This document shows positions 1 to 26,301 of a stretch of 33,263 bases of DNA, one piece after another. A model generated the notes under the pieces. It was not told where the DNA came from and did not search any database. It saw only the letters and a list, made by a program, of their open reading frames with translations. The translations under genes and the position numbers were made by a program. Position 1 is the first letter of the stretch, and every line of letters begins with the position of its first letter. The stretch is from a virus (Duplodnaviria; Heunggongvirae; Uroviricota; Caudoviricetes), in the IMG/VR virus record IMGVR_UViG_2703718853_000003, positions 1-33,263 of that record; one strand, 5' to 3'.

Positions 1-996
1 TTATGGACGCATTATGGACATTCCTGACACCGGGTTAAGAGTCACAGCATCTTGTAAGAAATCCGGTGCAAAGTGTGCGTAGGTCATAGTTTGCTGAATG
101 TTAGAATGACCCAGGATGCGCTGCAATGTGATTATGTTACCTCCATTCATTATAAAATGTGTGGCAAATGTATGCCTCAAAACATGTACTGCTTGTCCGT
201 CAGGTAAATCGGGTTTTACTTCCCTGAGAGCGTTACGCACTTTGTAGTAACTGGCATTAAAAAGCCTGCCTGAATTTTTGGTCTTGATCCGTTTAATCAG
301 GTCCTGCGAAACGGGAATTGTCCTGCGTTTTCCGTTTTTAGTTTTCATAAACGTAACCATCTGGTTAATGATGTGTTCAGCTTTTAAATTAGACACTTCA
401 CTCCAGCGTCCACCAGTAGAAAGGCAGACCAGAGTTGCATTTAATTCATCACCATCGAGCATGGATAACAGCCGCGTAATCTCTTCACTGGACAAAAAAG
501 CCATTTCCGTAACAGCTTCACGTAACCGTTTAATCTCACGGAACGGGTTGTGAGAGTGGTATTCACCGGCGTCAATTAACTTGGTGAACATCCCACTCAT
601 TATTGCCAGATGTCGATTTACGCTGGCTGGTTTTAGACCATCGTTCATCATTACAACGCGATAATCAGTTATCGTTTTCTTTGTTAGCTGGTCAGCTCTG
701 GACACTCCCATTTCTGCAAATTTGGCGATTATTGTCGTTAAACGCCCCCGTTCAATATCTCCACGCTCATGTGATTTTCCGTGATATATCCACCATCTGC
801 CTAACAACTCTGTAAGAGTTCGGCGGTCGGCTGGTTTCTCCAACCACTCTTTGTTGTGGTAGTTAACCAGTACATGACGTTCGAATGCTTGAGCTTCACC
901 TTTAGTTTTAAATTTCCGCCTGATACGTTTTCCATCTGCACCCTGCGGTCTGACGTCCACTTCATAACGACCATCATCGAGCTTTTTAATAGACAT
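1..996 (-). CDS. int: P2-type integrase (tyrosine recombinase)
   Basis: 331-aa minus-strand ORF starting MSIKKLDDGRYEVD, like P2 Int as I recall it. C-terminal R...HxLRHTFAT...Y tyrosine-recombinase motifs. Stop codon lies at positions 1-3, so the window begins at the prophage edge. Confidence 0.9.
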   Translation of the reverse strand: MSIKKLDDGRYEVDVRPQGADGKRIRRKFKTKGEAQAFERHVLVNYHNKEWLEKPADRRTLTELLGRWWIYHGKSHERGDIERGRLTTIIAKFAEMGVSRADQLTKKTITDYRVVMMNDGLKPASVNRHLAIMSGMFTKLIDAGEYHSHNPFREIKRLREAVTEMAFLSSEEITRLLSMLDGDELNATLVCLSTGGRWSEVSNLKAEHIINQMVTFMKTKNGKRRTIPVSQDLIKRIKTKNSGRLFNASYYKVRNALREVKPDLPDGQAVHVLRHTFATHFIMNGGNIITLQRILGHSNIQQTMTYAHFAPDFLQDAVTLNPVSGMSIMRP

Positions 997-1089
997 AAAG
1001 CCCTCCGATGACGCTGTTTACTTCTACTACTTGAAAATTAATGCAATTTTCTTTCGTACATTTACTACACACATATGCTGAATAAATCG

Positions 1090-1389
1090 TCAGCCAGTCT
1101 TCTGGTCTGAGTGGTGCAAGGTTGTTGAGTCTTGCCCAATGTGTGCGAGAGCCGGGGCTATTTGTCCAGCTGCTGGATCTGTTTCATCAAACATGAACCA
1201 GTCACGATACTTGCGAAAGCGTGGATGCTTAAACAGCTTCATACCTGCTTCCATAGGCATTTTTGATTTTCCTGATTCATATCCATGATATGTGTAGTAA
1301 TTAATTCCAATTAATTCAGCAAGTTCCTTAGTTTTAAGGCGTTCGGATTCACGGATGAGCTTTAGTTTCTCACTTTGTTCACTTGACAT
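1090..1389 (-). CDS. C: Immunity repressor C (P2 C-like)
   Basis: ATG at 1389 preceded by GGAG gives 99 aa, the length I recall for P2 C. It is divergent from cox and directly upstream of int, the P2 lysogenic arrangement. The ORF-track start at 1407 is a TTG. Confidence 0.75.
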   Translation of the reverse strand: MSSEQSEKLKLIRESERLKTKELAELIGINYYTYHGYESGKSKMPMEAGMKLFKHPRFRKYRDWFMFDETDPAAGQIAPALAHIGQDSTTLHHSDQKTG

Positions 1390-1407
1390 AATTTTGCTAA
1401 TCTCCAA

Positions 1408-1482
1408 TTATATTGTTACTTGGCAATTTGCGATTCACTCAAAAAGGCTCTAGATGGCTCCAGTTGGTGAATCGCAAATCTT
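1408..1482. promoter_or_regulatory. C/cox divergent switch region with 13-bp perfect inverted repeat (candidate operator and face-to-face promoters)
   Basis: atttgcgattcac at 1426-1438 and its reverse complement gtgaatcgcaaat at 1468-1480, located between the divergent C and cox start codons. Confidence 0.5.
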
Positions 1483-1854
1483 ATGGAGGATAGCAAAGTG
1501 ACGACAAATGTAGAAATTTCTTGTCCAACTAGCGATGAGGCAAGTTTCGAAAATGAAGCCAAACGTAAAAGCATTCAGATTTCAGAGCGCCCATCTGATT
1601 TGCTGTCGAAAGAAGGTTTTGCTCTTTACATCGGTAAGACACCACGCGCGGTGGCTGAAATGGCTAAAGCAGGAAAGCTGCCAGCCTTCTACATGACAGA
1701 CCCATTAAAACCAAGAGGGAAAGCTGAATTATGGATTAATCGCCGTGAGTGGGACAAGTACGCAGCCCAACTGGTTGATGAAGCTCCGACAGAATGGCAT
1801 GACTGGAAAAATCGCATTAGTTACAGCAAATCAAGACATGGCCGTGCGGCTTAA
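1483..1854 (+). CDS. cox: Cox/Apl-like excisionase and transcriptional regulator
   Basis: First rightward gene after the switch. The segment GKTPRAVAEMAKAGKLPAFYMTDP resembles the Cox HTH region. At 123 aa it is longer than P2 Cox (91 aa). The start may instead be GTG 1498, which follows GGAGGA. Confidence 0.6.
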   Translation: MEDSKVTTNVEISCPTSDEASFENEAKRKSIQISERPSDLLSKEGFALYIGKTPRAVAEMAKAGKLPAFYMTDPLKPRGKAELWINRREWDKYAAQLVDEAPTEWHDWKNRISYSKSRHGRAA

Positions 1855-3346: not shown

Positions 3347-3618
3347 GTATTCGTATTGAAATTGGCGAACGTTATGTCGTTACCAGTGACAGCTTTCAGT
3401 TTATTCTCCACGAGAAAAAGAGAGCGGAAAGCGGTAAAAACGCCGGTCAGGAATGGCTGGCGGTGGTTGGTTATTACCCGAAATTAAGCCAGCTCGTTTC
3501 CGGCCTGATGCATCACGATATTCTGACCGGAAGCGCAAAGTCTTTTGCTGATTTAAACGCGCAGGTTGAGCAACTCAGCAAGCGTTGTTCAGAGGCTTTT
3601 GGCTCATATGGCCGTTAA
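3343..3618 (+). CDS. Early hypothetical protein (P2 orf83 position)
   Basis: 91-aa ORF, ATGA-coupled to the upstream gene. Confidence 0.5.
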   Translation: MSIRIEIGERYVVTSDSFQFILHEKKRAESGKNAGQEWLAVVGYYPKLSQLVSGLMHHDILTGSAKSFADLNAQVEQLSKRCSEAFGSYGR

Positions 3619-5728
3619 AGCCTCCGGGCGTTTTGTCCCTCCGTCAGCATTTGCCGCAGGCACCGGTAAGGCGTTTACCGGTGCTTATGCATGGAACGCG
3701 CCACGCGAGGCTGTCGGGCGCGAAAGACCCCTTACACGTGACGAGATGCGTCAGGTGCAAGGTGTTTTATCCACGATTAACCGCCTGCCTTACTTTTTGC
3801 GCTCGCTGTTTACTTCACGCTATGACTACATCCGGCGCAATAAAAGCCCGGTACACGGGTTTTATTTCCTCACATCCACTTTTCAGCGTCGTTTATGGCC
3901 GCGCATTGAGCGTGTGAATCAGCGCCATGAAATGAACACCGACGCGTCGTTGCTGTTTCTGGCAGAGCGTGACCACTATGCGCGCCTGCCGGGAATGAAT
4001 GACAAGGAGCTGAAAAAGTTTGCCGCCCGTATCTCATCGCAGCTTTTCATGATGTATGAGGAACTCAGCGATGCCTGGGTGGATGCGCATGGCGAAAAAG
4101 AATCGCTGTTTACGGATGAGGCGCAGGCTCACCTGTATGGTCATGTTGCTGGCGCTGCACGTGCTTTCAATATTTCCCCTCTCTACTGGAAAAAATACCG
4201 TAAAGGACAGATGACCACGAGGCAGGCATATTCTGCCATTGCCCGTCTGTTTAACGATGAGTGGTGGACTCATCAGCTTAAAGGCCAGCGTATGCGCTGG
4301 CATGAGGCGTTACTGATTGCTGTCGGGGAGGTCAATAAAGACCGTTCTCCTTATGCCAGTAAACATGCCATTCGTGATGTGCGTGCGCGCCGCCAGGCAA
4401 ATCTGGAATTTCTTAAATCGTGTGACCTTGAAAACAGGGAAACCGGCGAGCGCATCGACCTTATCAGTAAGGTGATGGGCAGTATTTCTAATCCTGAAAT
4501 TCGCCGGATGGAGCTGATGAACACCATTGCCGGTATTGAGCGTTACGCCGCCGCAGAGGGTGATGTGGGGATGTTTATCACGCTGACCGCGCCGTCAAAG
4601 TATCACCCGACACGTCAGGTCGGAAAAGGCGAAAGTAAAACCGTCCAGCTAAATCACGGCTGGAACGATGAGGCATTTAATCCAAAGGATGCGCAGCGTT
4701 ATCTCTGCCGTATCTGGAGCCTGATGCGCACGGCATTCAAGGATAATGACTTACAGGTCTACGGTTTGCGTGTCGTCGAGCCACACCACGACGGAACGCC
4801 GCACTGGCATATGATGCTTTTTTGTAATCCACGCCAGCGTAACCAGATTATTGAAATCATGCGTCGCTACGCGCTCAAAGAGGATGGAGACGAAAGAGGA
4901 GCTGCGCGAAACCGTTTTCAGGCAAAACACCTTAACCGGGGCGGTGCTGCGGGGTATATCGCGAAATACATCTCAAAAAACATCGATGGCTATGCACTGG
5001 ATGGTCAGCTCGATAACGACACCGGCAGGCCGCTGAAAGACACAGCCGCGGCTGTTACCGCATGGGCGTCAACGTGGCGCATACCACAATTTAAAACGGT
5101 TGGCCTGCCGACAATGGGGGCTTACCGTGAACTACGCAAATTGCCCCGCGGCGTCAGCATTGCTGATGAGTTTGACGAGCGCGTCGAGGCTGCACGCGCC
5201 GCCGCAGACAGTGGTGATTTTGCGCTGTATATCAGCGCGCAGGGCGGGGCAAATGTCCCGCGCGATTGTCAGACTGTCAGGGTCGCCCGTAGTCCGTCGG
5301 ATGACGTTAACGAGTACGAGGAAGAAGTCGAGAGAGTGGTCGGCATTTACGCGCCGCATCTCGGCGCGCGTCATATTCATATCACCAGAACGACGGACTG
5401 GCACATTGTGCCGAAAGTTCCGGTCGTTGAGCCTTTGACTTTAAAAAGCGGCATCGCCGCGCCTCGGAGTCCTGTCAATAACTGTGGAAAGCTCTCCGGT
5501 GGTGATGCTTCGTTACCGGCTCCCACACCTTCTGAGCACGCCGCAGCAGTGCTTAATCTGGTTGATGACGGTGTTATCGAATGGAATGACCCGGAGGTCG
5601 TGAGGGCGCTCAGGGGCGCATTAAAACACGGGCTGAGAACGCCAAATCGTCAGCAAGGAAACGGAAGCCCGTTAAAACCACATGAAATAGCACCGTCGGG
5701 CAGATTGAACAGGTGGGAACGATTGTAA
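3608..5728 (+). CDS. A: Replication initiation endonuclease A (rolling-circle HUH nickase)
   Basis: About 706 aa from ATG 3608. Contains HWHMMLF (HUH motif) and a YIAKYISK catalytic-tyrosine motif. The track start at 3566 overlaps the previous gene more, so the internal ATG was preferred. Confidence 0.85.
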   Translation: MAVKASGRFVPPSAFAAGTGKAFTGAYAWNAPREAVGRERPLTRDEMRQVQGVLSTINRLPYFLRSLFTSRYDYIRRNKSPVHGFYFLTSTFQRRLWPRIERVNQRHEMNTDASLLFLAERDHYARLPGMNDKELKKFAARISSQLFMMYEELSDAWVDAHGEKESLFTDEAQAHLYGHVAGAARAFNISPLYWKKYRKGQMTTRQAYSAIARLFNDEWWTHQLKGQRMRWHEALLIAVGEVNKDRSPYASKHAIRDVRARRQANLEFLKSCDLENRETGERIDLISKVMGSISNPEIRRMELMNTIAGIERYAAAEGDVGMFITLTAPSKYHPTRQVGKGESKTVQLNHGWNDEAFNPKDAQRYLCRIWSLMRTAFKDNDLQVYGLRVVEPHHDGTPHWHMMLFCNPRQRNQIIEIMRRYALKEDGDERGAARNRFQAKHLNRGGAAGYIAKYISKNIDGYALDGQLDNDTGRPLKDTAAAVTAWASTWRIPQFKTVGLPTMGAYRELRKLPRGVSIADEFDERVEAARAAADSGDFALYISAQGGANVPRDCQTVRVARSPSDDVNEYEEEVERVVGIYAPHLGARHIHITRTTDWHIVPKVPVVEPLTLKSGIAAPRSPVNNCGKLSGGDASLPAPTPSEHAAAVLNLVDDGVIEWNDPEVVRALRGALKHGLRTPNRQQGNGSPLKPHEIAPSGRLNRWERL

Positions 5729-5985: not shown

Positions 5986-6025
5986 ATTAAATTCATGTAA
6001 CTAGTAAATGCAAATGGAAAAAAGC

Positions 6026-7162
6026 ATGAGAATAAAATCACTGGAGACATATAACTCTCACAGTAAATTGAAAATTAATAAAATAGAATTCAAATCACTG
6101 ACCTTATTGGTTGGTGCTTCAGGTGTAGGGAAAACACAAATACTTCGTTCTATCAATAAAATAAAGTCTATCGCACATGGTGATTCCGTTAGTGGGTTTT
6201 GCTGGAACGTTGAGTTTAATGCTGAAGGTAATGATTATCAATGGTCTGGTGAGTTTGAGGCGCTGGAGGATTATGATGATTTTACTTATGGAATGTTTCA
6301 TTTTGATGATGACGACAAGGTTGAACCAAAAATTATAAAAGAAGAAGTTAAAATCAATGGTTCAATTATTATCACCAGAAGTGGCGATGATATCGTTTAT
6401 AATGACAGTAAAACAGTTAAGCTGGCTTCTACAGTTAGTATAGTTCATCACTTGCGTGAGGAAGATGATATTTCGGTTATACACAAGTCATTTTCACGAA
6501 TTGTGCAAGTTGATGATGATGAAATGCATAAGGTGTTTCCTAGAAAAAATAAAGATGCTTCAGAGGATGAAGAGCTTAGCATCAATGATATCAGAGAGAA
6601 GTCATTCTCTTTGAGTGCTAAGTTGTATTTGTGTCAAGAAAAACAACCAGTCTACTTTCATCAAATTAAAAATTCATTTGTGGAGATTTTTCCATATATT
6701 GAAGATATAAAGGTGGTTAAGGTTGATACAAGAGGGATTCCTTTCTTTGTTCATTCTGTATATGCACTCAAGGTTAAGGAAAGAGGGATTGATGAGTGGA
6801 TTTCGCACAATTCAATGTCTACCGGGATGTTGAAAACATTTGTCCAACTGGCATATCTGCATCTTAGCCCGACGGGAACTGTGTTCTTAATTGATGAGTT
6901 CGAGAATGGCTTTGGTGTTAACTGTATTAATGATATAACAGATGTGCTACTACATCATGGTAATGATGTTCAGTTTATTTTGACGAGTCATCATCCTTAT
7001 ATTATAAATAACATACCGCTTGATAACTGGAAAATTATTTCAAGGAAGGCCGGGGTTGTTGATAACTATTCTGCGGATTTTTTTAATTTAAAAGAATCCA
7101 ATCATGAGGCGTTTACTAAATTAATAAATTTAAGCGTTTATTTTGATGGTGCGGATAGATGA
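6026..7162 (+). CDS. ABC/SMC-like P-loop ATPase (AAA_15/AAA_21-like; OLD N-terminal / AriA-like), cargo gene
   Basis: Walker A GASGVGKT, ABC-signature-like SMSTGMLK, Walker B VFLIDEFENG, H-loop-like LTSHHP. The N-terminus MRIKSLE is typical of this ATPase class. Start could also be ATG 6008 or 6014. AT-rich codon usage unlike the backbone. Confidence 0.8.
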   Translation: MRIKSLETYNSHSKLKINKIEFKSLTLLVGASGVGKTQILRSINKIKSIAHGDSVSGFCWNVEFNAEGNDYQWSGEFEALEDYDDFTYGMFHFDDDDKVEPKIIKEEVKINGSIIITRSGDDIVYNDSKTVKLASTVSIVHHLREEDDISVIHKSFSRIVQVDDDEMHKVFPRKNKDASEDEELSINDIREKSFSLSAKLYLCQEKQPVYFHQIKNSFVEIFPYIEDIKVVKVDTRGIPFFVHSVYALKVKERGIDEWISHNSMSTGMLKTFVQLAYLHLSPTGTVFLIDEFENGFGVNCINDITDVLLHHGNDVQFILTSHHPYIINNIPLDNWKIISRKAGVVDNYSADFFNLKESNHEAFTKLINLSVYFDGADR

Positions 7163-7869
7163 ATTTGTATATTTTGGCTGAGGGGCGACAAACAGAGCGC
7201 AGAATCTATCCGGCATGGATAGGCGTTCTATCTCCATCTTTAAAGCAAGTTGAGTGTTTGTCTGCAATAGATAAAAACAACTATTATTTTATAAGCGGCG
7301 AGGGATATCCTCGTATGATTGATGTGACGCTTATTAATGCAATTAAAGATATACATGATAACCCTAAATTTACCGATTTTTGGGTTGTGCTAGACTCTGA
7401 AGGAGAGGATGTTGAGGCAAGGAGAGAGCTTGTTAGAAATAAGATTGATTCTTCTGGTATAGATATATCTCATTGTGAAGTAAATATAATAGTTCAAAAT
7501 CCGTGCATAGAAACGTGGGGGCTAGGGAATCGAGTCATTATTTCGCCAAATAAGTTGACTGAATCTTTTTTGGACTATTATGAGCACTATGATGTGTCAT
7601 CCAATGATCCAGAGGGTATGGGGAAGCCTCTTGCCTATGACGGATCAATTGCTAAGTATCACGAGAGTTATTTAAAAAGTATGCTTGCTTTAAGAAATGC
7701 AATGTATACGAAAAAAAATCCAGCAGCATTGATGGAGCCTTCATATTTGCAACAGCTTATATCCAGAGCTTATGCTGAGGATGGACATATACCAAGCTTT
7801 AGGCATTTTCATACGTTGGCTACTCAGCTTGAGGCTAAAGCGAAAATGTTGGAAAGCCGTGTAGCGTAG
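7159..7869 (+). CDS. Small TOPRIM-like partner protein (DUF4276/DUF4435-like, putative nuclease), cargo gene
   Basis: 236 aa; start ATG overlaps the ATPase stop (ATGA). N-terminal LYILAEG (conserved Glu) and VVLDSEGED (acidic DxE/D cluster) fit a TOPRIM-like signature. The family call is inferred from motifs only. Confidence 0.6.
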   Translation: MNLYILAEGRQTERRIYPAWIGVLSPSLKQVECLSAIDKNNYYFISGEGYPRMIDVTLINAIKDIHDNPKFTDFWVVLDSEGEDVEARRELVRNKIDSSGIDISHCEVNIIVQNPCIETWGLGNRVIISPNKLTESFLDYYEHYDVSSNDPEGMGKPLAYDGSIAKYHESYLKSMLALRNAMYTKKNPAALMEPSYLQQLISRAYAEDGHIPSFRHFHTLATQLEAKAKMLESRVA

Positions 7870-8191: not shown

Positions 8192-9226
8192 TCAGTCGTT
8201 GTCAGTGTCCAGTGAGTAGTTTTTAAAGCGGATGACCTCCTGACCGAGCCAGCCGTTTATCTCGCGGATCCTGTCCTGTAACGGGATAAGCTCATTGCGG
8301 ACAAAGACCTTTGCCACTTTCTCAATATCCCCCAGTGACCCGACGTTCTCCGGCTTGCCGCCCATCAACTGAAAGGGGATGCGGTGTGCGTCCAGCAGAT
8401 CTGCGGCGCTGACTTTTTTGATATTAAAAAAATCGTCCTTCGTTGCCACTTCACTGAGCGGGATAATTTTAATGCCGTCGGCTTTCCCCTGTGGGGCATA
8501 GAGAAACAGATTTTTAAAGTTGTTGCGGCCTTTCGACTTAACCATGTTTTCGCGAAGCATTTCGATATCGTTGCGATCCTGCACGGCATCGGTGACGTAC
8601 ATGATATATCCGGCATGAGCACCGTTTTCGTAATACTTGCGGCGAAACAGCGTGGCCGACTCATTCAGCCAGGCAGAGTTAAGGGCGCTGAGATATTCCG
8701 GCAGGCCGTACAGCTCCTGATTAATATCCGGCTCCAGCAGGTGAAACACGGAGCCGGGCGTGAAAGGTGTCGGCTCGTTGAAGGACGGCACCCACCAGTA
8801 AACATCCTCCTCCACGCCACGGCGGGTATATTTTGCCGGTGAGGTTTCCAGTCTGATGACCTTACCGGTGGTGCTGTAACGCTTTTCCAGAAACGCATTA
8901 CCGAACACCAGAAAATCCAGCACAAAGCGGCTGAAATCCTGCTGAGAAAGCCACGGATGCGGGATAAATGTTGAGGCCAGAATATTACGTTTGACGTAAA
9001 TCGGTGAGCTGTGATGCACGGCAGCACGCAGGCTTTTTGCCAGACCGGTAAAGCTGACCGGTGGCTCATACCATCTGCCGTTACTGATGCACTCGACGTA
9101 ATCCAGAATGTCACGGCGGTCGAGTACCGGCACCGGCTCACCAAAGGTGAATGCCTCCATTTTCGGGGCGCTGGCGGTCATTGTTTTTGCCGCAGGTCGC
9201 GGTGTTTTCCCTTTTTTCTTGCTCAT
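8192..9226 (-). CDS. Q: Portal protein (gpQ)
   Basis: 344 aa, the length I recall for P2 Q; minus strand next to cos, directly downstream of P. Confidence 0.85.
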   Translation of the reverse strand: MSKKKGKTPRPAAKTMTASAPKMEAFTFGEPVPVLDRRDILDYVECISNGRWYEPPVSFTGLAKSLRAAVHHSSPIYVKRNILASTFIPHPWLSQQDFSRFVLDFLVFGNAFLEKRYSTTGKVIRLETSPAKYTRRGVEEDVYWWVPSFNEPTPFTPGSVFHLLEPDINQELYGLPEYLSALNSAWLNESATLFRRKYYENGAHAGYIMYVTDAVQDRNDIEMLRENMVKSKGRNNFKNLFLYAPQGKADGIKIIPLSEVATKDDFFNIKKVSAADLLDAHRIPFQLMGGKPENVGSLGDIEKVAKVFVRNELIPLQDRIREINGWLGQEVIRFKNYSLDTDND

Positions 9227-10998
9227 CAGTAAAACTCCAGAATGGTGGATGTCAGCGGGGTGCTGATACCGGCGGTGAGTGGCTCATTTAACAGGGCGTG
9301 CATGGTCGCCCAGGCGAGGTCGGCGTGGCTGGCTTCCTCGCTGCGGCTGGCCTCATAGGTGGCGCTGCGTCCGCTGCTGGTCATGGTCTTGCGGATAGCC
9401 ATAAACGAGCTGGTGATGTCGGTGGCGCTGACGTCATATTCCAGACAGCCACGGCGGATAACGTCTTTTGCCTTGAGCACCATTGCGGTTTTCATTTCCG
9501 GCGTGTAGCGGATGTCGCGCGCGGCGGGATAGAACGAGCGCACGAGCTGGAACACGCCGACACCGAGGCCGGTGGCATCAATACCGATGTATTCGACGTT
9601 GTATTTTTCGGTGAGTTTGCGGATGGATTCCGCCTGAGTGGCAAAGTCCATGCCTTTCCACTGGTGACGCTCAAGTATTCTGAATTTGCCACCGGCCACC
9701 ACCGGCGGTGCCAGTACCACGCATCCGGCGCTGTCGCCACGGTGTGACGGGTCGTAACCAATCCATACCGGGCGGGAGCCGAACGGATTCGCGGCAAACG
9801 GCGCATAGTCTTCCCATTCTTCCAGCGTGTCGACCATGCAGCGTTGCAGCTCCTCGAACGGGAACACCGACGCCTTGTCGTCAACAAATTCACACATGAA
9901 CAGGTTTTTAAAATCGTCGGCGCTGTTTTCGCGTTTGAGCTGCTCAATGTCGAACAGCGTGCAGCCGCCTTTCAGGGCGTCCTCAATGGTGACAATCTGC
10001 CGCCACTGGCCGTCCGCACAGAGAAGTCCACCGGCAAGGGCGTTATGACTGACGTCGATTTCCACGCGTTCGGCGGCGCTGGCGCGTCCCCGGTTAAACA
10101 GTTCACCCGACCAGAACGGGTAGGCGTCGTGCGCCAGCGTGGACGGGGTGGAGAAATAGGTCGAACGCAGGTGACTCTGTGAGGCCATACCTGATGCCAC
10201 CTTACGCAGTACCTGAAAATTCGGGATCCAGAAAATCTCGTCGACGTACAGGTCGCCGTTATGGCTCTGTGCGGTGTTGGAGTTGGTGCCGAGAAAAATT
10301 AGTTTTGCGCCGTTATTGCCCAGGACAATCGGGTCACCGGTCAGGTCAACGTCAACCAGACGGGCAAAGGCGATGATGTATTCGCGGAACACATACGCCT
10401 GCGTTTTACTGGCCGACAGAAAAATCTGGTTATGGCCGGTTTTCAGGGCGCGCAGCAGCGCCTCGCGGGAAAAATAAAACGTTGCGCCAATCTGGCGGGA
10501 TTTCAGGATATCGCGGATGCGGTGCTCAAGCCCGGCGCGATACCAGTGCAACTGATAGTCGAAAGACTGCTCAAAGAAAATCTGCTCCAGCTTTTCGATG
10601 GCTTCGTCACTGAAAAAATTCTTTTTCGGTTTGCGACGCCCGCCTTTGTTGCGGTTAGCGACGTTCGGATTAAGGTCTGCCTCGTTGCCGGTCTGACTGT
10701 AACGGTTGACCCGTGCCAGTCGTTCAATCTGGCGTCCGAGCAGGTCAATTTCCTTGAAGTCACCGCCGGTTTTCTGCGGTTTGATGATGAGCTGGGTCAG
10801 CCGCGCTTCCAGACTCATTTCGACACGGCTGATGGGGGCAACACTGTCCCAGCCGTCGCGCTGTTTCCAGCTCTGCACCGTCGGGCGTTTCATCTGCAAC
10901 ATGGCGGCAATCTGCGGCACGGAAAACCCCTGCCAGTACAGCAGCGCCGCCTGACGACGCGGGTCGTGTAAAAGAGTGGTGTCTGTGGTGATGGTCAT
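9226..10998 (-). CDS. P: Terminase large (ATPase) subunit (gpP)
   Basis: About 590 aa from ATG 10998 (MTITTDTTLL) preceded by GAGG. The ORF-track start at 11028 is a TTG. Confidence 0.85.
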   Translation of the reverse strand: MTITTDTTLLHDPRRQAALLYWQGFSVPQIAAMLQMKRPTVQSWKQRDGWDSVAPISRVEMSLEARLTQLIIKPQKTGGDFKEIDLLGRQIERLARVNRYSQTGNEADLNPNVANRNKGGRRKPKKNFFSDEAIEKLEQIFFEQSFDYQLHWYRAGLEHRIRDILKSRQIGATFYFSREALLRALKTGHNQIFLSASKTQAYVFREYIIAFARLVDVDLTGDPIVLGNNGAKLIFLGTNSNTAQSHNGDLYVDEIFWIPNFQVLRKVASGMASQSHLRSTYFSTPSTLAHDAYPFWSGELFNRGRASAAERVEIDVSHNALAGGLLCADGQWRQIVTIEDALKGGCTLFDIEQLKRENSADDFKNLFMCEFVDDKASVFPFEELQRCMVDTLEEWEDYAPFAANPFGSRPVWIGYDPSHRGDSAGCVVLAPPVVAGGKFRILERHQWKGMDFATQAESIRKLTEKYNVEYIGIDATGLGVGVFQLVRSFYPAARDIRYTPEMKTAMVLKAKDVIRRGCLEYDVSATDITSSFMAIRKTMTSSGRSATYEASRSEEASHADLAWATMHALLNEPLTAGISTPLTSTILEFY

Positions 10999-11171
10999 GA
11001 ATACCTCGCCGTGATGAATACACGGCAAGGCTACTGAGTCGCGCCCCGCGATTCGCTAAGGTGCTGTTGTGTCAGTGATAAGCCATCCGGGACTGATGGC
11101 GGAGGATGCGCATCGTCGGGAAACTGATGCCGACATGTGACTCCTCTAATCACTATTCAGGACTCCTGACA

Positions 11172-16497: not shown

Positions 16498-16927
16498 TGC
16501 CGTCACGGTGCTGAAAACTAACCCCGATATGCTGCGGATATTCGTGGATAACGGGAGTATTGCCTCCACACTGGCGACGTCGCTGTCATTCGAAAAGCGT
16601 TACACGCTCAATGTCATTGTGACCGACTTTACCGGTGATTTTGACCTGCTCATTGTGCCGGTGCTGGCGTGGCTGCGGGAAAATCAGCCCGACATCATGA
16701 CCACCGACGAAGGCCAGAAAAAGGGCTTCACGTTTTATGCAGACATCAACAATGACAGCAGCTTTGATATCAGCATCAGCCTGATGCTGACCGAGCGCAC
16801 GCTGGTTAGTGAGGTGGACGGCGCGCTGCATGTGAAGAATATCCCGGAACCCACGCCGCCGGAGTCGGTCACCCGCCCGATGGAGCTTTATATCAATGGC
16901 GAACTGGTGAGCAAGTGGGATGAATGA
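16460..16927 (+). CDS. R: Tail completion protein R
   Basis: 155 aa, the length I recall for P2 R. Confidence 0.8.
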   Translation: MLKPDSLRRALTDAVTVLKTNPDMLRIFVDNGSIASTLATSLSFEKRYTLNVIVTDFTGDFDLLIVPVLAWLRENQPDIMTTDEGQKKGFTFYADINNDSSFDISISLMLTERTLVSEVDGALHVKNIPEPTPPESVTRPMELYINGELVSKWDE

Positions 16928-17378
16928 GTTTAAGCGTTTTGAAGACCGGCTGACCGGACTGACTGAATCGCTGTCACCGTCAGGGCGTCGGCGACTGGCG
17001 ATAGATATTGCGAAGAAGCTGCGTCAGCGCCAGCAGCAGCGAATTAAATTACAAAAAGCCCCGGATGGTACGCCGTATGTACCGAGAAAAAACCAACCAG
17101 TACGAAATAAGAAAGGCCGGATAAAGCGGGAAATGTTTGTGAAATTACGCACTAACCGGTTTATGAAAGCAACAGGTAGCGAGAGTGCGGCGGTGGTGGA
17201 GTTTGCCAGCGGAGTACAACGAATTGCGCGAGTACATCAATTAGGGCTTAGGGATAAGCCGGGGCGTAATAGTGCTGTGGTGGAATATCCTGTTCGTGAG
17301 TTATTTGGTTTTGACAAGGAATCTATACAATTGATAGAAAGGGAGTTATTAGTGATTCTATCGAAAGATGTTATATGA
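16920..17378 (+). CDS. S: Tail completion protein S
   Basis: 152 aa in the P2 S position; the 3' end runs into AT-rich sequence. Confidence 0.8.
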   Translation: MNEFKRFEDRLTGLTESLSPSGRRRLAIDIAKKLRQRQQQRIKLQKAPDGTPYVPRKNQPVRNKKGRIKREMFVKLRTNRFMKATGSESAAVVEFASGVQRIARVHQLGLRDKPGRNSAVVEYPVRELFGFDKESIQLIERELLVILSKDVI

Positions 17379-18130
17379 GACGGGTGTTTGTGGATAAAAA
17401 GTTTTCCATTTTGAGAAAAAGAGTAAAGCATTCTCAAAAGAAAGTTATGGATTGTATTATTGCTGACCATAATGCTGATATATGTGTGTTATGCGGGAGT
17501 TCTGACGATATTACTCGTGAGCACATTATTCCTCAGTGGGCCTTTGAGTCAAATGCTGAAAAATCTTTAATTAATAAAAAGAATAATCAGTCAACTCATT
17601 ACATTAAAGCCACTGTACCAGCATGCAGAGTGTGCAATTCTGATTTGCTGGGAGTGTTTGAGTATAACCTGAAGAAATTTCTTACGGAAAAGAGGGGCGA
17701 TGAGTTAACAGATTATGAATATGATTGCATCATATGGTGGTTGCAATACATGGGCTTTAAGTTGCAATTAATGGATTTACGGACCCGCTTTCTCAGGTTT
17801 AAAGGGGGGGATTATATCCCTTTCCTTGCAAACTTCCCGGTTGCAATGTTTTGGGGGAATGTCGATACGACACCGGAGGATGTCTTCAGGATTATAAGAA
17901 AATCGCGACGCAATCTGATGTCGAAATGGAAGGATAAAAAACATAATTCTTTGATGGTTTTTGAAACATCAAACAAGAGTTTTCATTTCTTTCATAAGGT
18001 TGATGAATTTATTTTTATTGAAATGCCTCAGGTTAAGAAGGCGTTTTTCTTCTTTTTTAATAAAGAAATTGACAGCCATGATTTAGCTCATGAGGAGTGT
18101 ATGAAGATTATAGAGAAGTACTACAACTAA
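17375..18130 (+). CDS. HNH-motif protein (putative HNH endonuclease-domain moron, P2 orf30 position)
   Basis: 251 aa, AT-rich, ATGA-coupled to S. CVLCGSSDDITREHIIPQW ... CRVCNSDL matches a CxxC...(E/D)H..P...CxxCN HNH / His-Me finger pattern. Confidence 0.6.
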   Translation: MRRVFVDKKFSILRKRVKHSQKKVMDCIIADHNADICVLCGSSDDITREHIIPQWAFESNAEKSLINKKNNQSTHYIKATVPACRVCNSDLLGVFEYNLKKFLTEKRGDELTDYEYDCIIWWLQYMGFKLQLMDLRTRFLRFKGGDYIPFLANFPVAMFWGNVDTTPEDVFRIIRKSRRNLMSKWKDKKHNSLMVFETSNKSFHFFHKVDEFIFIEMPQVKKAFFFFFNKEIDSHDLAHEECMKIIEKYYN

Positions 18131-18207
18131 TATTTATTATGTTGTGTCACGGCTGACAGAGTCCTCCATGATTGCTGCTGGTATCGTCCGGCGGCATCCT
18201 TCCCGTC

Positions 18208-20633: not shown

Positions 20634-22883
20634 ATGAGCACAAAATTCAAAACCGTTATCACCACTGCCGGTGCAGCAAAGCTGGCAGCGGCAACCGCGC
20701 CGGGAGGGCGGAAGGTCAACATTACCACGATGGCCGTCGGGGATGGCGGTGGTAAATTGCCTGTCCCGGATGCCGGACAGACCGGGCTTATCCACGAAGT
20801 CTGGCGACATGCGCTGAACAAAATCAGCCAGGACAAACGAAACAGTAATTATATTATCGCAGAGCTGGTTATTCCGCCGGAGGTGGGCGGTTTCTGGATG
20901 CGTGAGCTTGGCCTGTACGATGATGCTGGAACGTTAATTGCCGTGGCGAACATGGCTGAAAGTTATAAGCCAGCTCTTGCCGAAGGCTCAGGGCGTTCGC
21001 AGACCTGCCGCATGGTCATCATCGTCAGCAGTGTGGCCTCAGTGGCGCTGACCATTGACACCACAACGGTGATGGCAACGCAGGATTACGTTGATGACAA
21101 AATTGCAGAACATGAACAGTCACGACGTCACCCGGACGCCTCGCTGACCGCCAAAGGTTTTACTCAGTTAAGCAGTGCGACCAACAGCACGTCTGAAACA
21201 CTCGCCGCAACACCAAAAGCGGTAAAAGCAGCATATGACCTTGCTAACGGGAAATACACTGCACAGGACGCCACCACAGCGCGAAAAGGCCTTGTCCAGC
21301 TCAGTAGTGCCACCAACAGCACGTCTGAAACGCTCGCCGCAACACCAAAAGCGGTAAAAGCAGCATATGACCTTGCTAACGGGAAATACACTGCACAGGA
21401 CGCCACCACAGCGCGAAAAGGCCTTGTCCAGCTCAGTAGCGCCACCAACAGCGATTCTGAAACGCTTGCGGCAACGCCAAAGGCGGTTAAGACAGCGTAT
21501 GACCTTGCTAACGGGAAATACACTGCACAGGATGCCACCACAGCGCGAAAAGGTCTTGTCCAGCTCAGTAGCGCCACCAACAGTGATTCTGAAACGCTGG
21601 CTGCAACACCAAAAGCGGTGAAGTCTGCCTATGACAATGCTGAAAAACGTCTTCAGAAAGATCAGAACGGTGCGGATATTCCTGATAAAGGACGCTTCCT
21701 GAGTAACATTAATGTTTACAGCAAAGGTGAAGTGGATAAGAAAAAGGGAATGCGAAAGTATTCGTTTGCAGCCCCTGCAAATGTCGTTGCCGGGAAGTGG
21801 TATCCCGTTATCTTTCGCCGTGCTGCCAGCCTTTCAGGAGAAATGGCATCCCGCGTCGTTATTTCAACTGGTTGTTATAACGGCGATTATGTAATGAATA
21901 ACTGCGAGTTTAATGGCATGGTTATGCCCGGAGGCTGGACCGATCGTGGTTCATATGCGGCAGGTTATTTCTGGACGTATCAGACTAATGAGCGTTCAAT
22001 CCATTCCATTGTTACAAGCCTGAAAGATGATGATGTATGTAGTGTTTTTTATGTTGAAGCCAGAGCTTTCCCAGTACAAATTCTTGCAGAGGAAGGGCTA
22101 ACGGTTATTGTTCCGACAGAGGATTATGTCGTCGGTCAGACGACATATAAGTGGGGGGCAACTAATCCCGCTACAGAAAGCACGAACGTACAGGCTATTC
22201 TGGATTTTAAAAATGGACGTGGTTATTACTGTTCACATCCATTTATTTCCAGCCTTTCAGGAAATGCTGCAACAGCAACTAAGTTAGCGAACGCAAGAAA
22301 TATTAATGGTGTCAGATTTGATGGCTCTGCCGATATAAATATTAATACACTGGTATCCAGAAACCGTGTTACTGCATTAGGTGGGAGCGTAAAGGGGACA
22401 CCAGGTATTCAGATGTATGAGGCATACAACAATGGCTACCCAACAGCCTATGGTAATGTGCTTCATCTCACTGGCGTAACCGCTGTAGGAGAGGGTGAGT
22501 TACTTATTGGCTGGAGTGGAACCAGCGGTGCTCATGCTCCGGCATATATTCGCTCCCGACGAGATACCACAGATGCTAACTGGTCTGGATGGGCGCAACT
22601 ATATACAACTGCTCATAAACCCTCAGCGGGAGATGTTGGTGCATACACCAAAGCTGAGTCAGATTCACGTTATGTGAGAGACATGCGGCTGGGCGGTGCA
22701 TCTACATATAAACCAGCAAATAATGGTACTACATGGACGCATCAGGCTCCGTCAGGTTGCGTATATACCGGCATTATTGTTCAGGATACCGGCTCAAACT
22801 CTGCCGATAACATTGGTGGCGTATATTACAGACCGGTGCAGAAATACATTAACGGGACATGGTATAACGTGGCGCAGGTATAA
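20634..22883 (+). CDS. H: Tail fibre protein H
   Basis: 749 aa. Conserved N-terminus, tandem tail-fibre repeats in the middle, and an AT-richer divergent C-terminal (receptor-binding) part. Confidence 0.85.
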   Translation: MSTKFKTVITTAGAAKLAAATAPGGRKVNITTMAVGDGGGKLPVPDAGQTGLIHEVWRHALNKISQDKRNSNYIIAELVIPPEVGGFWMRELGLYDDAGTLIAVANMAESYKPALAEGSGRSQTCRMVIIVSSVASVALTIDTTTVMATQDYVDDKIAEHEQSRRHPDASLTAKGFTQLSSATNSTSETLAATPKAVKAAYDLANGKYTAQDATTARKGLVQLSSATNSTSETLAATPKAVKAAYDLANGKYTAQDATTARKGLVQLSSATNSDSETLAATPKAVKTAYDLANGKYTAQDATTARKGLVQLSSATNSDSETLAATPKAVKSAYDNAEKRLQKDQNGADIPDKGRFLSNINVYSKGEVDKKKGMRKYSFAAPANVVAGKWYPVIFRRAASLSGEMASRVVISTGCYNGDYVMNNCEFNGMVMPGGWTDRGSYAAGYFWTYQTNERSIHSIVTSLKDDDVCSVFYVEARAFPVQILAEEGLTVIVPTEDYVVGQTTYKWGATNPATESTNVQAILDFKNGRGYYCSHPFISSLSGNAATATKLANARNINGVRFDGSADININTLVSRNRVTALGGSVKGTPGIQMYEAYNNGYPTAYGNVLHLTGVTAVGEGELLIGWSGTSGAHAPAYIRSRRDTTDANWSGWAQLYTTAHKPSAGDVGAYTKAESDSRYVRDMRLGGASTYKPANNGTTWTHQAPSGCVYTGIIVQDTGSNSADNIGGVYYRPVQKYINGTWYNVAQV
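21156..21645 (+). repeat. About 3.7 tandem copies of a 132-bp (44-aa) in-frame phage tail-fibre repeat inside H
   Basis: Repeated LSSATNS(T/D)SETLAATPKAVKAAYDLANGKYTAQDATTARKGLVQ units with nearly identical nucleotide sequence. This is what produces the long antisense ORF 21164..21580. Confidence 0.85.
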
Positions 22884-22886
22884 TTT

Positions 22887-23414
22887 ATGCAGCATTTAAA
22901 AAATATTACGGCGGGTAATCCAAAAACGGTTGAACAATATCAATTGACAAAGGACTTTGATGTTGTCTGGTTTTTTTCTGAAGATGGTAAGAACTGGTAC
23001 GAAGAACAAAAGTATTTTGCTGATGACACGATAAAAATAGCGTACGACAAAGATAATATCATCCGCTATGTGGAAAAGGATGTGACAGCTATCAGACCGG
23101 ATGGATTAAGTATTGTTGAAGTGGCGGATATTACTGCTAACCGACGGGCGGACATTTCAGGGAACTGGATGTTTAAGGACGGCAAAGTGATTAAACGCAT
23201 TTATACGGCAGAGGAATTACAGCAGCAGGCAGAAATTCAGAAAGCCAGACTTCTTGCAGATGCTGAATCCGTGATTTTGCCGCTGGAGCGCGCGGTCAGA
23301 CTGAACATGGCAACAGATGAGGAGCGCACACGGCTGGAGGCTTGGGAACGCTACAGCGTTGTGGTCAGTCGTGTAGATCCTGCAAATCCTGAATGGCCGG
23401 AAATGCCGCAATAA
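22887..23414 (+). CDS. G: Tail fibre assembly protein G
   Basis: 175 aa, the length I recall for P2 G, directly after H. Confidence 0.85.
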
Positions 23415-23592: not shown

Positions 23593-24267
23593 TTATTTAA
23601 TGATTTTAAAAAGTTCATTGTAGCTACAACCTTTGAATATTTCGAACTGATCATGGTAATTTGAATAAGCGCTTGCCATCATTCCGATATAACTATCCCA
23701 TGATGACTCAGAAACTACCCTTTCACCACGCTCTAATTCATCAATTAAAATATAAATAATATTAAATTGTGCAACAAGAGCAGTGTAGGTGGTGATGAGA
23801 TTATTTAGAAGGTCTGAATGATTAGGTTTGATTTTCCACAAACCAAAACTATCCCGAATTGCAACTAATTCGAATCGTAAATCTTTTGACTCAGAAAGTA
23901 ACTCCCTCCCACTTGTAGTGAGATGCTTGTAGAGTATGGGGTTCTCACTTTTTATTCTTGGCTGTATAGAAATAAGTGATTGATAACATTGATGATTTAA
24001 GTCCTTTGATCGAAACATGCTGTCGATGAACAATGTAGTTCTCTCGAAAGCCTTTTCTGATTTTTTGTTTTTAATCCATTCATTTACCCTTGTTAATGCA
24101 TAAATCGCTAGTCCAAGTGTTATTGTTGAAACTGTTGCAGTAATTGTTGATGGTTCAATTTTTTTAAAAAACCAGATATCAATCCATGCAAAAGAGACTG
24201 AGCCGAGATACATAAACAACATGTGACTCGCGAAGTATTCCCAAACACCTTTTAAATAGCTTTTCAT
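23593..24267 (-). CDS. Small membrane protein (two predicted N-terminal TM helices), cargo gene of unknown function
   Basis: AT-rich minus-strand ORF. The second ATG (24267) is preceded by AAGGA; the first ATG is at 24282. Hydrophobic stretches HMLFMYLGSVSFAWIDIWFF and ITATVSTITLGLAIYAL. A TATAAT-like -10 lies just upstream on the minus strand (plus 24290-24295). Confidence 0.6.
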   Translation of the reverse strand: MKSYLKGVWEYFASHMLFMYLGSVSFAWIDIWFFKKIEPSTITATVSTITLGLAIYALTRVNEWIKNKKSEKAFERTTLFIDSMFRSKDLNHQCYQSLISIQPRIKSENPILYKHLTTSGRELLSESKDLRFELVAIRDSFGLWKIKPNHSDLLNNLITTYTALVAQFNIIYILIDELERGERVVSESSWDSYIGMMASAYSNYHDQFEIFKGCSYNELFKIIK

Positions 24268-24443
24268 GTAGATCCTTAACATTTTCTTAATTATATTTTA
24301 TGGTGGTATTTTTGTTAGTATCGGCATGGATTAGAAATAGTTGATACTTTTATGCCCTGAGAGCATGAAAACTGGAAAAGCCTTGCTCATGATATAAATA
24401 GTGTTAGTTGCCACTGCTTTGGAAGTTATCCTTTAAATGGGCT

Positions 24444-24700
24444 ATCGGAAAGCCAGACTTCTAGCAGATGCTGAATCCGTGATTTTGCCGCTGGAGCGCG
24501 CTGTCAGGCTGAATATGGCAACAGATGAGGAGCGCAGTCGACTGGAGGCATGGGAACGCTACAGCGTTCTGGTCAGTCGTGTGGATCCTGCAAATCCTGA
24601 ATGGCCGGAAATGCCGCAAGAAGTTGTATGAGCTCTGGTGTGAACTTACATATCTATGGCACAGAGTAAAGCCTAATCTGACAGTCCGCTCTGTGCCGAA
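24444..24700 (+). repeat. Degenerate direct duplicate of the 3' end of G plus its downstream sequence (G' remnant)
   Basis: About 250 bp highly similar to 23236-23490. The encoded [57 protein letters not shown] copies the G C-terminus, with the G stop changed to a sense codon. Not an independent gene. Confidence 0.8.
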
Positions 24701-24921
24701 GCTAGCAAAGCCATGGTCCTTTCGCAGCAAGTTGCGTAAATAAGGCGTTTTTATCTCTTGAAGCATTCTACAAAGCCAACTCCTCGCTCAAACAGACGTG
24801 TCTGTTCAGCAATCTGCCCGCTTGGTATCAAGGGACGCCAGTAACGCGATACCGGGTGAATTCCTTCCTTAACTGCCCTCACATCATCTTTAATAATAGT
24901 TTACCCTGATATAACGGATGA

Positions 24922-26301
24922 TCAGAAGTCAATCAGGTCATCGAATTTCTGAGGTGGCTCTTGTTTTCGAACGCTATCTCCCTGATGAATCTCCGTCTCA
25001 CTTGTTTGGTATTTTACACCAGTAATTTTATGATAAGTCATACTGTTGGTTTTCAACAGTAGTGCATCATTTTTGTCATGCGAGGATGAAAATGAACCCA
25101 TATGTCTCGGTTTTATTTGTTCCTCAACTATCAACTGAATTTCCGGAACAAAAGCATACTGGTCATCTTCGATGTGTTCATACATCTCAACATTATATCG
25201 GCGAGATTTATCTGCGGCATGCCTGACGCCGGAAGACTTATTAAACAGAACGACATTATATCCTGTCTCAGCATCCTCACCGTTGGCATCTACCTGGGTA
25301 GATTTAAAGCTGACACCATCAAGCTTAAATTTATTTCGGTCACCTAGGTAATCGGCAACCACTTGGGTGATGAGGTAATCACTGTCCTGCCTTTTTCCAA
25401 AAGTAGGAAGCGTCAACTTACGGGAAAGCGTACTGAAAAAAATCGCGCGCTCACTGGTTTTGCGAGTCTGAGGATCAAATTTACTACCTGAGCCGAAACT
25501 AATCGAGTCAAGGGCAGAAATGTCCAGCACTTTTAGCTCGCGTAACGGTATAAAACAGGCCGTTACTACAATACTGCCGACGGGCGGCCTTACTTCAGCA
25601 ATTGCCAAATTCACTGAGGTTGCACCGTAAAATACTGAAATCCCCTGTGCGTTCATACGGCCCGACCGAGCCAAAGTTGTTGGGGGAGGTCCAAAATTTT
25701 TCTCGGGATGCTCCAAGGCTTGCTTTACTTCCTCTTGGTCCTCAAAAACCCTTGCACGAAAAAGATGAACCTCATCAGTCAGAGTTTTTATCGGTGAATT
25801 ACTGTCTCTGTTTTTTAGTTTATCGATATCACTGAAAAGTGAATCCAGGAAATCATTAACTTCACGGTTAAAATATCGTGTTTCTTTCATAAGGGAGTCA
25901 GTGGCTTTACTCCAGGTATGCGCAAGCTCTCCGCTATAGTGATTTATGTGCCGATAAAGAAACCCGTCATTATACCGGATGTAGTCATAATCGTTATGCG
26001 GATTATATTCATCACAAAGAAGTTCATAAATATCTTCAGCTACGTCCCATTCGACGCCCAGTTCTCCGTAGATGACATCCTGCGCGCTATCACCGCGCCC
26101 GGAATCATAGATATCCTCATATATATCATAATAGTACTCAAAAACCTCATTCATCATCTTGAGAATATATTTGAGGTGGATGTTTTTACGCTTCCTTTTG
26201 CAGTAAGAGCAAATCTGAAAATTATTTCCAGTTTTTATTATATGCTGCATGACATATTTATCGTTCACGCATTTATGACAAATATACTTATCTTCCCACA
26301 T
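24922..26301 (-). CDS. RES-domain protein with N-terminal zinc ribbon (candidate NAD+-targeting abortive-infection effector), cargo gene
   Basis: 459 aa, AT-rich, minus strand. N-terminal CHKC-x19-CSYC zinc ribbon. RES signature LFRARV ... SGRMNAQGISVFYGATSVNLAIAEV ... DGVSFKS...GYNVVLFN at about aa 178-356 (roughly nt 25234-25770). Domain call is by motif recognition only. Confidence 0.65.
   Translation of the reverse strand: MWEDKYICHKCVNDKYVMQHIIKTGNNFQICSYCKRKRKNIHLKYILKMMNEVFEYYYDIYEDIYDSGRGDSAQDVIYGELGVEWDVAEDIYELLCDEYNPHNDYDYIRYNDGFLYRHINHYSGELAHTWSKATDSLMKETRYFNREVNDFLDSLFSDIDKLKNRDSNSPIKTLTDEVHLFRARVFEDQEEVKQALEHPEKNFGPPPTTLARSGRMNAQGISVFYGATSVNLAIAEVRPPVGSIVVTACFIPLRELKVLDISALDSISFGSGSKFDPQTRKTSERAIFFSTLSRKLTLPTFGKRQDSDYLITQVVADYLGDRNKFKLDGVSFKSTQVDANGEDAETGYNVVLFNKSSGVRHAADKSRRYNVEMYEHIEDDQYAFVPEIQLIVEEQIKPRHMGSFSSSHDKNDALLLKTNSMTYHKITGVKYQTSETEIHQGDSVRKQEPPQKFDDLIDF

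Follow-up and report, generated by a model that had tools for sequence, protein, structure and literature searches.

A putative HNH nuclease-type cargo gene between tail genes S and V of P2-like prophages

The window analysed here (33,263 nucleotides, IMG/VR record IMGVR_UViG_2703718853_000003) is a complete P2-like prophage, and the subject of this study is an open reading frame (ORF) lodged between its tail-completion gene S and its baseplate gene V. Comparison with relatives suggests that this gene is HNH nuclease-type cargo of an uncharacterised, widely scattered family, and it is neither a counterpart of P2 Orf30 nor a packaging HNH. As to its role, we favour the reading that it encodes a stand-alone accessory nuclease acting in conflicts between mobile elements and carried, in P2-like phages, as the terminal gene of the late O operon. 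The probability that we give to this reading is about 0.45.

The ORF (17375..18130, plus strand) encodes 251 amino acids (aa). It is flanked by gpS, identified by a Pfam match to Phage_tail_S, and by gpV, which starts at an ATG at 18208 and matches both Phage_base_V and Phage_spike. Its GC content is 0.359, compared with 0.507 for the window, 0.596 for V and around 58% for the neighbouring genes, and its product is basic (pI 8.8), with 11% Lys, 8.9% Phe, 7.7% Ile and 5.7% Asn. Numbering from the ATG at 17375, the motif reads C37-x2-C40, E49-H50-x2-P53, N70, C84-x2-C87-N88. An earlier reading of the bare sequence (hereafter, the original prediction) had described an ORF of this length between S and V, with a CxxC...EH..P...CxxCN pattern and an AT-rich, Lys/Asn/Phe-rich composition; all of these features are present, and the motif residues are conserved in family alignments. 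The protein matches PHROG 10503, of unknown function, over its whole length (1.9e-178), and is kept at full length in 130 species-representative genomes and 50 viral contigs. The ratio of non-synonymous to synonymous substitution rates (dN/dS) against the copy of phage R18C is 0.18, a sign of purifying selection; in deeper comparisons dS is saturated and dN lies between 0.22 and 0.52. Conservation is far beyond chance, and the ORF is a real, conserved gene.

The residues expected of an HNH nuclease were followed in alignments of 23 and 40 sequences, whose relatives are 25-70% identical to the window protein. E49-H50, the proline, the tryptophan and N88 are invariant, and N70 is invariant or nearly so. 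Three of the four cysteines (C40, C84 and C87) are invariant in both alignments, while C37 is invariant in one and at least 90% conserved in the other. Pfam model HNH_5 (PF14279) matches the window protein at 16.2 bits (E 0.0099) over aa 37-54 only; the gathering threshold of the model is 27.5 bits, and formal HNH_5 membership is not reached. Independent matches to HNH_5 are found in 21 of the 23 relatives, with a best E of 3e-5 and with 21 of 23 sub-threshold. Outside the HNH core the Pfam scan of the window protein gave no match, nor did an NCBIfam scan of the protein or a search of the PDB with the single sequence. Comparison of the family profile with the PDB brought out the string VPACkeCNN, shared with Gme HNH (4h9d), although the E of 0.15 is not significant.

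Searched with the family profile, 1.84 billion representative proteins yielded 878 relatives, about 25 of which are full-length clusters. Many of the matches are proteins of 300-360 aa that share only the first ~105 positions, with E values of about 1e-9 to 1e-11. One such remote relative (P0153, family profile E 1.5e-9) scores 27.6 bits against HNH_5, at the gathering score; proteins of this type were sub-threshold or borderline for HNH_5 and had no PADLOC match.

The full-length AlphaFold model (predicted local distance difference test 74, predicted template-modelling score 0.78) places a strand at 46-50, with H50 as its last residue, a second strand at 80-84 and a helix at 85-105, with C84xxC87-N88 at its start, in the beta-beta-alpha order. 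The hallmarks of the HNH superfamily are present: an acidic residue plus the His that closes the first strand, a metal-ligand Asn and a middle Asn. There are also two CxxC pairs, as in the zinc-containing subgroup, for which a zinc site is predicted. The best structural matches belong to HNH_5/His-Me group 1 (Gme HNH 4h9d, GVE2 HNH 5h0o and ZRANB3 HNH 5mkw), with which the window protein shares a predicted beta-beta-alpha-metal core and the VPACxxCN string; the motif order of that group, CxxC ... D/E-H ... N ... CxxC-N (PMC5714182), is also its own. Unlike group 1 members, however, it has a 30-residue insert between the two strands, and its core is embedded in long helices followed by a domain of ~140 aa without known relative.

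From the alignments and the model we conclude that the protein belongs to the His-Me/HNH superfamily, that its catalytic residues are intact, and that by score it falls outside HNH_5. The HNH identity proposed originally is thereby upheld at the superfamily level by alignments, relatives and model, while the profile score of the window protein itself stays below the HNH_5 threshold. One might instead view the protein as a non-catalytic zinc-finger protein, either a DNA-binding regulator or a structural adaptor built on an HNH-like scaffold, as the sub-threshold HNH_5 match covers just the first CxxC...EH part. Degenerate HNH domains, however, usually lose their catalytic residues, and in this family E49-H50, N70 and N88 are kept throughout, beyond the four cysteines. 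We consider this alternative highly improbable.

The family extends well outside P2-like phages. Without P2 genes nearby, 78 further loci were found, at 29-41% identity except for one copy with 61% identity in Erwinia, which lies inside an integrative and conjugative element (ICE) and adjoins TraG_N, an integrase and a KAP NTPase. Hosts of the non-P2 loci include Vibrio, Photobacterium, Shewanella, Colwellia, Halomonas, Acinetobacter and Desulfobulbaceae, many Flavobacterium, Chryseobacterium, Pedobacter and Sphingobacterium, as well as Ignavibacteriota, Gracilibacteria and Peribacteria. A conserved partner gene was considered and rejected: clustering of three genes per side at the 78 loci detected only local synteny among close relatives.

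The neighbours at positions ±1 and ±2 (~75 loci) included numerous matches to defence families: Mrr_cat (three), type IV restriction endonuclease (two), Hhe (two, 2e-149), PDC-S37 (two), Mokosh-like (two), PDC-S31, PDC-S02, PD-Lambda-3_B, bSEFIR, GajB, LmuA, PDC-M02A+B, Drt2 (3e-131), HamA (4e-90), ThsA, type IIG restriction-modification and several methyltransferases. Housekeeping genes and genes of mobile genetic elements (relaxase, TraG) are found at the same positions. By a rough tally, made from family counts rather than per locus, about one quarter of the loci have a recognisable defence gene within two positions, a proportion that would be well above the level generally expected of random genes. 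Such a defence-gene neighbourhood of the family is suggestive. Known defence proteins such as the type IV restriction enzymes McrA/TagI, Cap5 (CBASS) and PtuB (Septu/retron Eco7) also have an HNH core joined to another domain, which in the window protein would provide specificity or control. The window family resembles defence HNH proteins in being a single gene with no immunity partner, and defence genes are among its neighbours. The domain order differs from that of McrA, with the HNH first in the window protein, and neither a SAVED nor an ATPase partner is present.

Within P2-like elements, we examined how the gene is distributed in 5426 complete Escherichia coli genomes. The gene is found in 79 of them, always on the chromosome, with at least 97.9% identity among the matches listed (30 of the 79 genomes). 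P2-like flanks (R plus 5' S; V plus W) are found in 1635 E. coli genomes, and both flanks are adjacent in 1080. An even sample of flank matches contained 36 rows of 1730-1736 nucleotides (nt), which correspond to an empty slot, and 3 rows of 2488-2499 nt, which correspond to the HNH allele. About 5-7% of E. coli P2-like prophages carry the HNH gene, and the usual allele is the empty slot. Among 50,697 phage records, R18C is the only one with the gene. In four of the 30 listed E. coli genomes (H57-H60) the Prokaryotic Genome Annotation Pipeline (PGAP) annotates two hypothetical proteins, and shortened products of 170, 181 and 228 aa exist as clusters (P0037, P0038 and P0209); this minority of split and shortened E. 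coli copies shows that the HNH gene is occasionally inactivated.

Relatives with at least 45% identity (~60 loci) all lie between S and V of P2-like elements. Their hosts are Escherichia, Enterobacter, Klebsiella, Kosakonia, Kluyvera and deeper lineages, and in the deeper P2-like lineages R, S and V are just 51-64% identical to those of the window. Relative by relative, the HNH gene and the adjoining R, S, V and W show parallel levels of identity; this parallel, together with the dN/dS of 0.18, indicates that the gene is an old, selected resident of the S-V slot. Two records, a metagenome-assembled genome titled Sporobacter termitidis (L015) and an assembly titled Chryseobacterium sp. 18061 (L016), carry an enterobacterial-type P2-like segment that includes the HNH-like gene; their R, S, V, W and J are 63-82% identical to those of the window. 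Such a segment would not be expected in a Firmicutes metagenome-assembled genome or a Bacteroidota isolate, which suggests contamination or mis-binning.

Maintenance in the S-V slot across P2-like lineages, at the end of the late structural operon and without a promoter of its own, would also suit a nuclease that helps the lytic cycle by degrading host DNA, by processing replication or recombination intermediates, or by assisting packaging in the manner of HK97-like HNH proteins. However, the gene is absent from ~93-95% of E. coli P2-like prophages and from all P2-like phage records except R18C, and given its absence from most P2-like elements it cannot be needed for packaging or growth. Packaging HNH proteins are of ~100-130 aa, are encoded beside terminase or portal genes and are needed for cos cleavage. 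The window protein shares with HK97 gp74 and GVE2 HNH a phage-encoded core of the same superfamily group, but at 246 aa it is twice their size and has an extra domain; its gene lies between S and V, ~6 kb away from terminase genes P and M, and has relatives also outside phages. A helper function in the lytic cycle is quite unlikely in our view. The packaging-associated HNH that had been offered as one possibility does not hold, with a gene that is not next to terminase or portal and that occurs in 79 genomes as against 1080-1635 with P2-like flanks. Overall, the original prediction survives in part: the HNH superfamily and the accessory nature of the gene are supported and the packaging role is not.

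The S-V position is one of three moron regions in P2-like phages (PMC6823313, PMC3091744). Its description as a variable site agrees with our data: different P2-like prophages have an empty slot, the HNH gene or extra cargo. In P2 (NC_001895) the order is S, an annotated rho-independent O-operon terminator, Orf30, the pV activator site and V, and the activator-binding site is recorded 42-69 nt upstream of V. P2 Orf30 (in the region 998..1825 of locus L144, NC_001895) is encoded by 786 nt of the minus strand as a hydrophobic protein of 261 aa. The HNH gene does occupy the orf30 position, as had been proposed, and the likeness ends at the shared slot: Orf30 lies on the opposite strand, behind the annotated O-operon terminator, and is hydrophobic and unrelated in sequence. 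Homology between the two proteins was considered and rejected (BLASTP E 0.45, with Orf30 on the opposite strand). In the R18C paper ORF30 is described as '261-bp-long', a figure that apparently refers to aa, not bp (PMC6823313). The sequence of P2 itself upstream of V is unlike that of the window and of L-413C.

The stop codon of the HNH gene lies 10 nt from the V-upstream sequence conserved in empty-slot phages. A scan for terminator-like hairpins found none between S and the HNH gene or after the gene, and no sigma-70-like site upstream of the gene on the plus strand, including the 3' end of S, passed the scan. Because neither a terminator nor an own promoter was found, and the gene abuts S and ends just before the V promoter, the simplest interpretation makes it the final cistron of the late O operon. 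At 17311..17316, still within S, TTGACA forms a perfect -35 hexamer 74 nt ahead of the conserved start, near the 3' end of that gene; its best -10 is TAGAAA, at a spacing of 18 nt, and the pair was not reported by the scan.

Further cargo can be present in the slot. In Klebsiella pneumoniae prophages L009-L012, a second cargo gene of ~216 aa without Pfam match (~6926..7576, minus strand, opposite to the HNH-like gene) lies between the HNH-like gene and V, which indicates that the S-V slot can hold more than one gene. The gap between the HNH-like gene and V is likewise enlarged in the Chryseobacterium-titled record (L016) and in viral contigs L125-L128.

The gene had been thought to be coupled to S through an ATG that overlaps the S stop codon. 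Such an overlap is present in the window, where the ATG of the ORF shares ATGA (17375-17378) with the TGA of gpS; it is, however, specific to the E. coli/R18C lineage, and relatives start at the position of the GTG at 17390. Twenty-one relatives begin with MDKKF or similar, which corresponds to V6 of the ORF, and R18C has an ATG at the matching codon, where the PGAP/RefSeq annotation begins. The GTG lies 11 nt past the S stop and is preceded by a purine-rich stretch 7-14 nt upstream. In Enterobacter, Klebsiella, Kosakonia and deeper P2-like lineages the S stop is ~8-20 nt upstream of the start, with purine-rich sequence between and no overlap. The five-codon extension is thus found in the E. 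coli/R18C lineage only, other lineages having a stop codon and a gap of 8-20 nt. As relatives begin at V6 and R18C has an ATG there, the conserved product is the 246-aa protein from 17390; the lineage-specific ATGA overlap may or may not be used, and in both cases the gene abuts S.

The surroundings of the gene were compared with phage L-413C. In blastn the alignment stops at 17077 and restarts at 18171, and the GC content of 17078-18170 is 0.383. At a finer scale, most E. coli copies differ densely from ~16994 onwards and one (L105) from ~17029, and conservation with L-413C restarts at GTTGTG, position 18141. Window S and L-413C S are 55% identical overall, with the first ~25 residues nearly identical; for the C-terminal 99 aa, the nearest counterparts are the S proteins of 186-, Klebsiella- and Erwinia-type P2-like phages (60-69% aa identity). 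Beyond the block, the flanks are 94-95% similar to those of HNH-less phages, a value equal to the similarity among HNH-less phages. These comparisons indicate that the block arrived by recombination from another P2-like lineage. Horizontal acquisition, as originally proposed, is supported to that extent; the foreign low-GC block, however, starts inside S (~16994) and not at the ORF.

Two further observations concern the block. P2-type sequence reaches ~35 nt further into S in L105 than in other E. coli-type copies, and this difference in the left junction points to at least one extra recombination event nearby. The idea that the S variant is tied specifically to the HNH gene was rejected, as similar S C-termini are found in 186-, Klebsiella- and Erwinia-type phages; no phage of these types appeared in the phage-collection protein search for the HNH gene, in which only R18C matched.

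The architecture of the locus brings to mind a free-standing HNH homing endonuclease, and a selfish gene of this kind is the main rival of a role in conflicts. A homing enzyme would cut the empty S-V allele, or P2-type S or V, of related phages during co-infection or superinfection, and recombinational repair would copy the gene in and drag along the flanking S. The features that fit are several: an AT-rich gene without signals of its own is wedged tightly between conserved phage genes; it is sporadic on near-identical backbones (~5-7% of E. coli P2-like prophages, the slot being otherwise empty); one site is used, with an intact empty allele (flanks spanning 2499 nt with the HNH gene and 1730 nt without); a divergent 3' S travels with the gene like a co-conversion tract, with left junctions at ~16994 and ~17029; and late expression would suit a homing enzyme. 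Variable junctions are, however, also expected from ordinary homologous recombination. Moreover, the 78 loci in chromosomes or ICE have unrelated neighbours and lie near defence genes, not at homologous sites of related phages, and the family is mostly found in non-phage islands, in contrast with T4 MobA-E, T5 SciA/F-Tfl and I-HmuI. Unlike those enzymes, the window protein showed no NUMOD, AP2 or other known DNA-binding module in the Pfam scan. In addition, the gene has diverged with the P2-like backbone down to 45% identity under purifying selection, and repeated invasion and decay would leave a different record. Altogether, we find homing rather unlikely.

The reading that we favour, a nuclease engaged in conflicts between mobile elements, can be put as follows. 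The product, of ~29 kDa, has in its N-terminal third a predicted zinc-stabilised His-Me finger nuclease domain, in which zinc would be bound by the two CxxC pairs and the catalytic metal by Asn88, while His50 would serve as general base and Asn70 would support the loop. A helical scaffold surrounds this domain, and an alpha/beta domain with no recognised fold comes after it. Family members are stand-alone genes dispersed over mobile elements and variable islands in Proteobacteria, Bacteroidota and other phyla; one clade has long been established in the S-V slot of P2-like phages. In that slot, where S ends 8-20 nt ahead of it and the V promoter follows directly, the gene is most likely transcribed last in the late O operon. 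The nuclease would cut DNA of competing phages or satellites, and P2 morphogenesis and packaging would have no need for it. In the absence of an immunity partner, its activity would be limited by target specificity or by activation, and the C-terminal domain is the obvious candidate for selecting the target or controlling activation.

The analysis shows that the gene is real, that it has an HNH-type motif and fold, how it is distributed, that its slot is conserved and what its neighbourhoods contain; nuclease activity, late transcription and a defence or competition role are inferred. The conflict role draws on the neighbourhoods of the family, on the dispensability of the gene in most P2-like phages, on the defence-type cargo found at other hotspots of the prophage (described below) and on the lytic growth of R18C. 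In the R18C paper the same gene is ORF16, a 741-bp hypothetical with no informative PSI-BLAST result (PMC6823313). R18C forms plaques while carrying it (PMC6823313), which indicates that the gene is not self-destructive.

Several observations weigh against a conflict role. The neighbourhood signal is a tally without matched control, and the loci behind it belong to the distant clade (29-41% identity) rather than to the P2 clade. Nothing above threshold was found in NCBIfam, Pfam or PADLOC 2.0.0, and no tie to a validated defence system emerged: the best PADLOC-DB 2.0.0 match of the window protein is PDC-M01B, at a non-significant E of 0.033, and a PADLOC scan of ten remote relatives gave nothing. 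Expression is a further difficulty. In P2, the prophage itself expresses old, tin and fun; in contrast with old, tin and fun(Z), the window gene appears joined to the late operon. With no own promoter in the scan and apparent wiring to that operon, it is an odd candidate for lysogen protection, as a late-transcribed gene would not protect a quiescent lysogen. Finally, our search of the literature found no described function beyond the hypothetical moron of the 2019 R18C note. The papers on P2 defence hotspots that we consulted deal with A-Q, Z/fun and other regions, and do not discuss the S-V slot specifically or the HNH gene.

Late-only expression leaves room both for homing and for a speculative variant of the conflict role, in which the nuclease of the P2 slot would be a weapon triggered by trans-activation of late promoters. 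The gene would remain silent in the lysogen until delta of a P4-like satellite, or Ogr/B of a superinfecting P2- or 186-like phage, activated the late operons; the nuclease would then attack the intruder and, during lytic growth, shield the burst from satellites and co-infecting relatives. If true, the helper phage would possess a counter-measure against satellites, or a defence gene able to work with neither promoter nor sensor of its own. We deem this variant improbable.

Should the protein be an active conflict nuclease, a widespread single-gene family, spanning Enterobacterales to Bacteroidota and candidate phyla and currently without a curated model, would be added to the weapons carried by phages. 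The S-V slot would then be a site where cargo is fused to the late structural operon, not expressed from the prophage, and the question would arise of whether the target is other invaders of the host, satellites such as P4, or sibling phages. Were the protein instead a homing endonuclease, P2-like phages would gain their first described enzyme of this kind, and the mosaic S would be accounted for. Coordinates of the locus and of prophage landmarks are given in Table 1.

Table 1. Features of the S-V region and landmarks of the P2-like prophage (window coordinates).
Feature	Position	Strand	Basis
HNH-like accessory protein, coding sequence from the conserved start (GTG; 246 aa + stop)	17390..18130	+	comparison of relatives
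Possible 5-codon N-terminal extension MRRVF, ATG overlapping S stop	17375..17389	+	sequence
Predicted His-Me finger (HNH) core: C37xxC40, E49-H50, P53, W55, N70, C84xxC87-N88	17483..17638	+	
C-terminal region (aa 113-251): predicted two long helices, Phe-rich four-stranded sheet, terminal helix; no recognised family	17711..18127	+	
Conserved region upstream of V (position of pV late promoter and activator site)	18141..18207	+	aligns with L-413C S-V spacer
Mosaic block relative to the P2/L-413C backbone: most of S (from ~codon 25), HNH-like gene, short spacer	16994..18140	+	
Tail-completion gene S, 3' part within the imported block	16920..17378	+	Pfam Phage_tail_S 4e-29
Integrase	1..996	-	window
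gpA	3566..5728		window
Portal gene	8192..9226	-	window
Terminase gene P	9226..11028		window
Tail fibre and assembly genes	20634..23414		window

Other cargo sites of the prophage are also occupied. The old/tin hotspot, between gpA and the portal gene, contains an overlapping two-gene cassette on the plus strand. Its first gene (6008..7162) encodes a 384-aa AAA_21 ATPase with PADLOC matches to AbiLi (8e-19), AriA (1e-14) and HEC-01A, and the second (7159..7869) a 236-aa protein with a weak AbiLii match (8.5e-6). On these matches, the cassette (6008..7869) is probably an AbiL/PARIS-like defence pair. In the Z/fun slot, between the tail-fibre assembly gene and FI, three ORFs are found on the minus strand (23593..26301). 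Two of them, of 101 and 229 aa, have no matches, and none of the three matches PADLOC. In the third (24922..26301, 459 aa), a RES domain (4e-14) and, weakly, a HEPN/RES N-terminal domain are recognised, and the ORFs of this slot may be toxin-type cargo.

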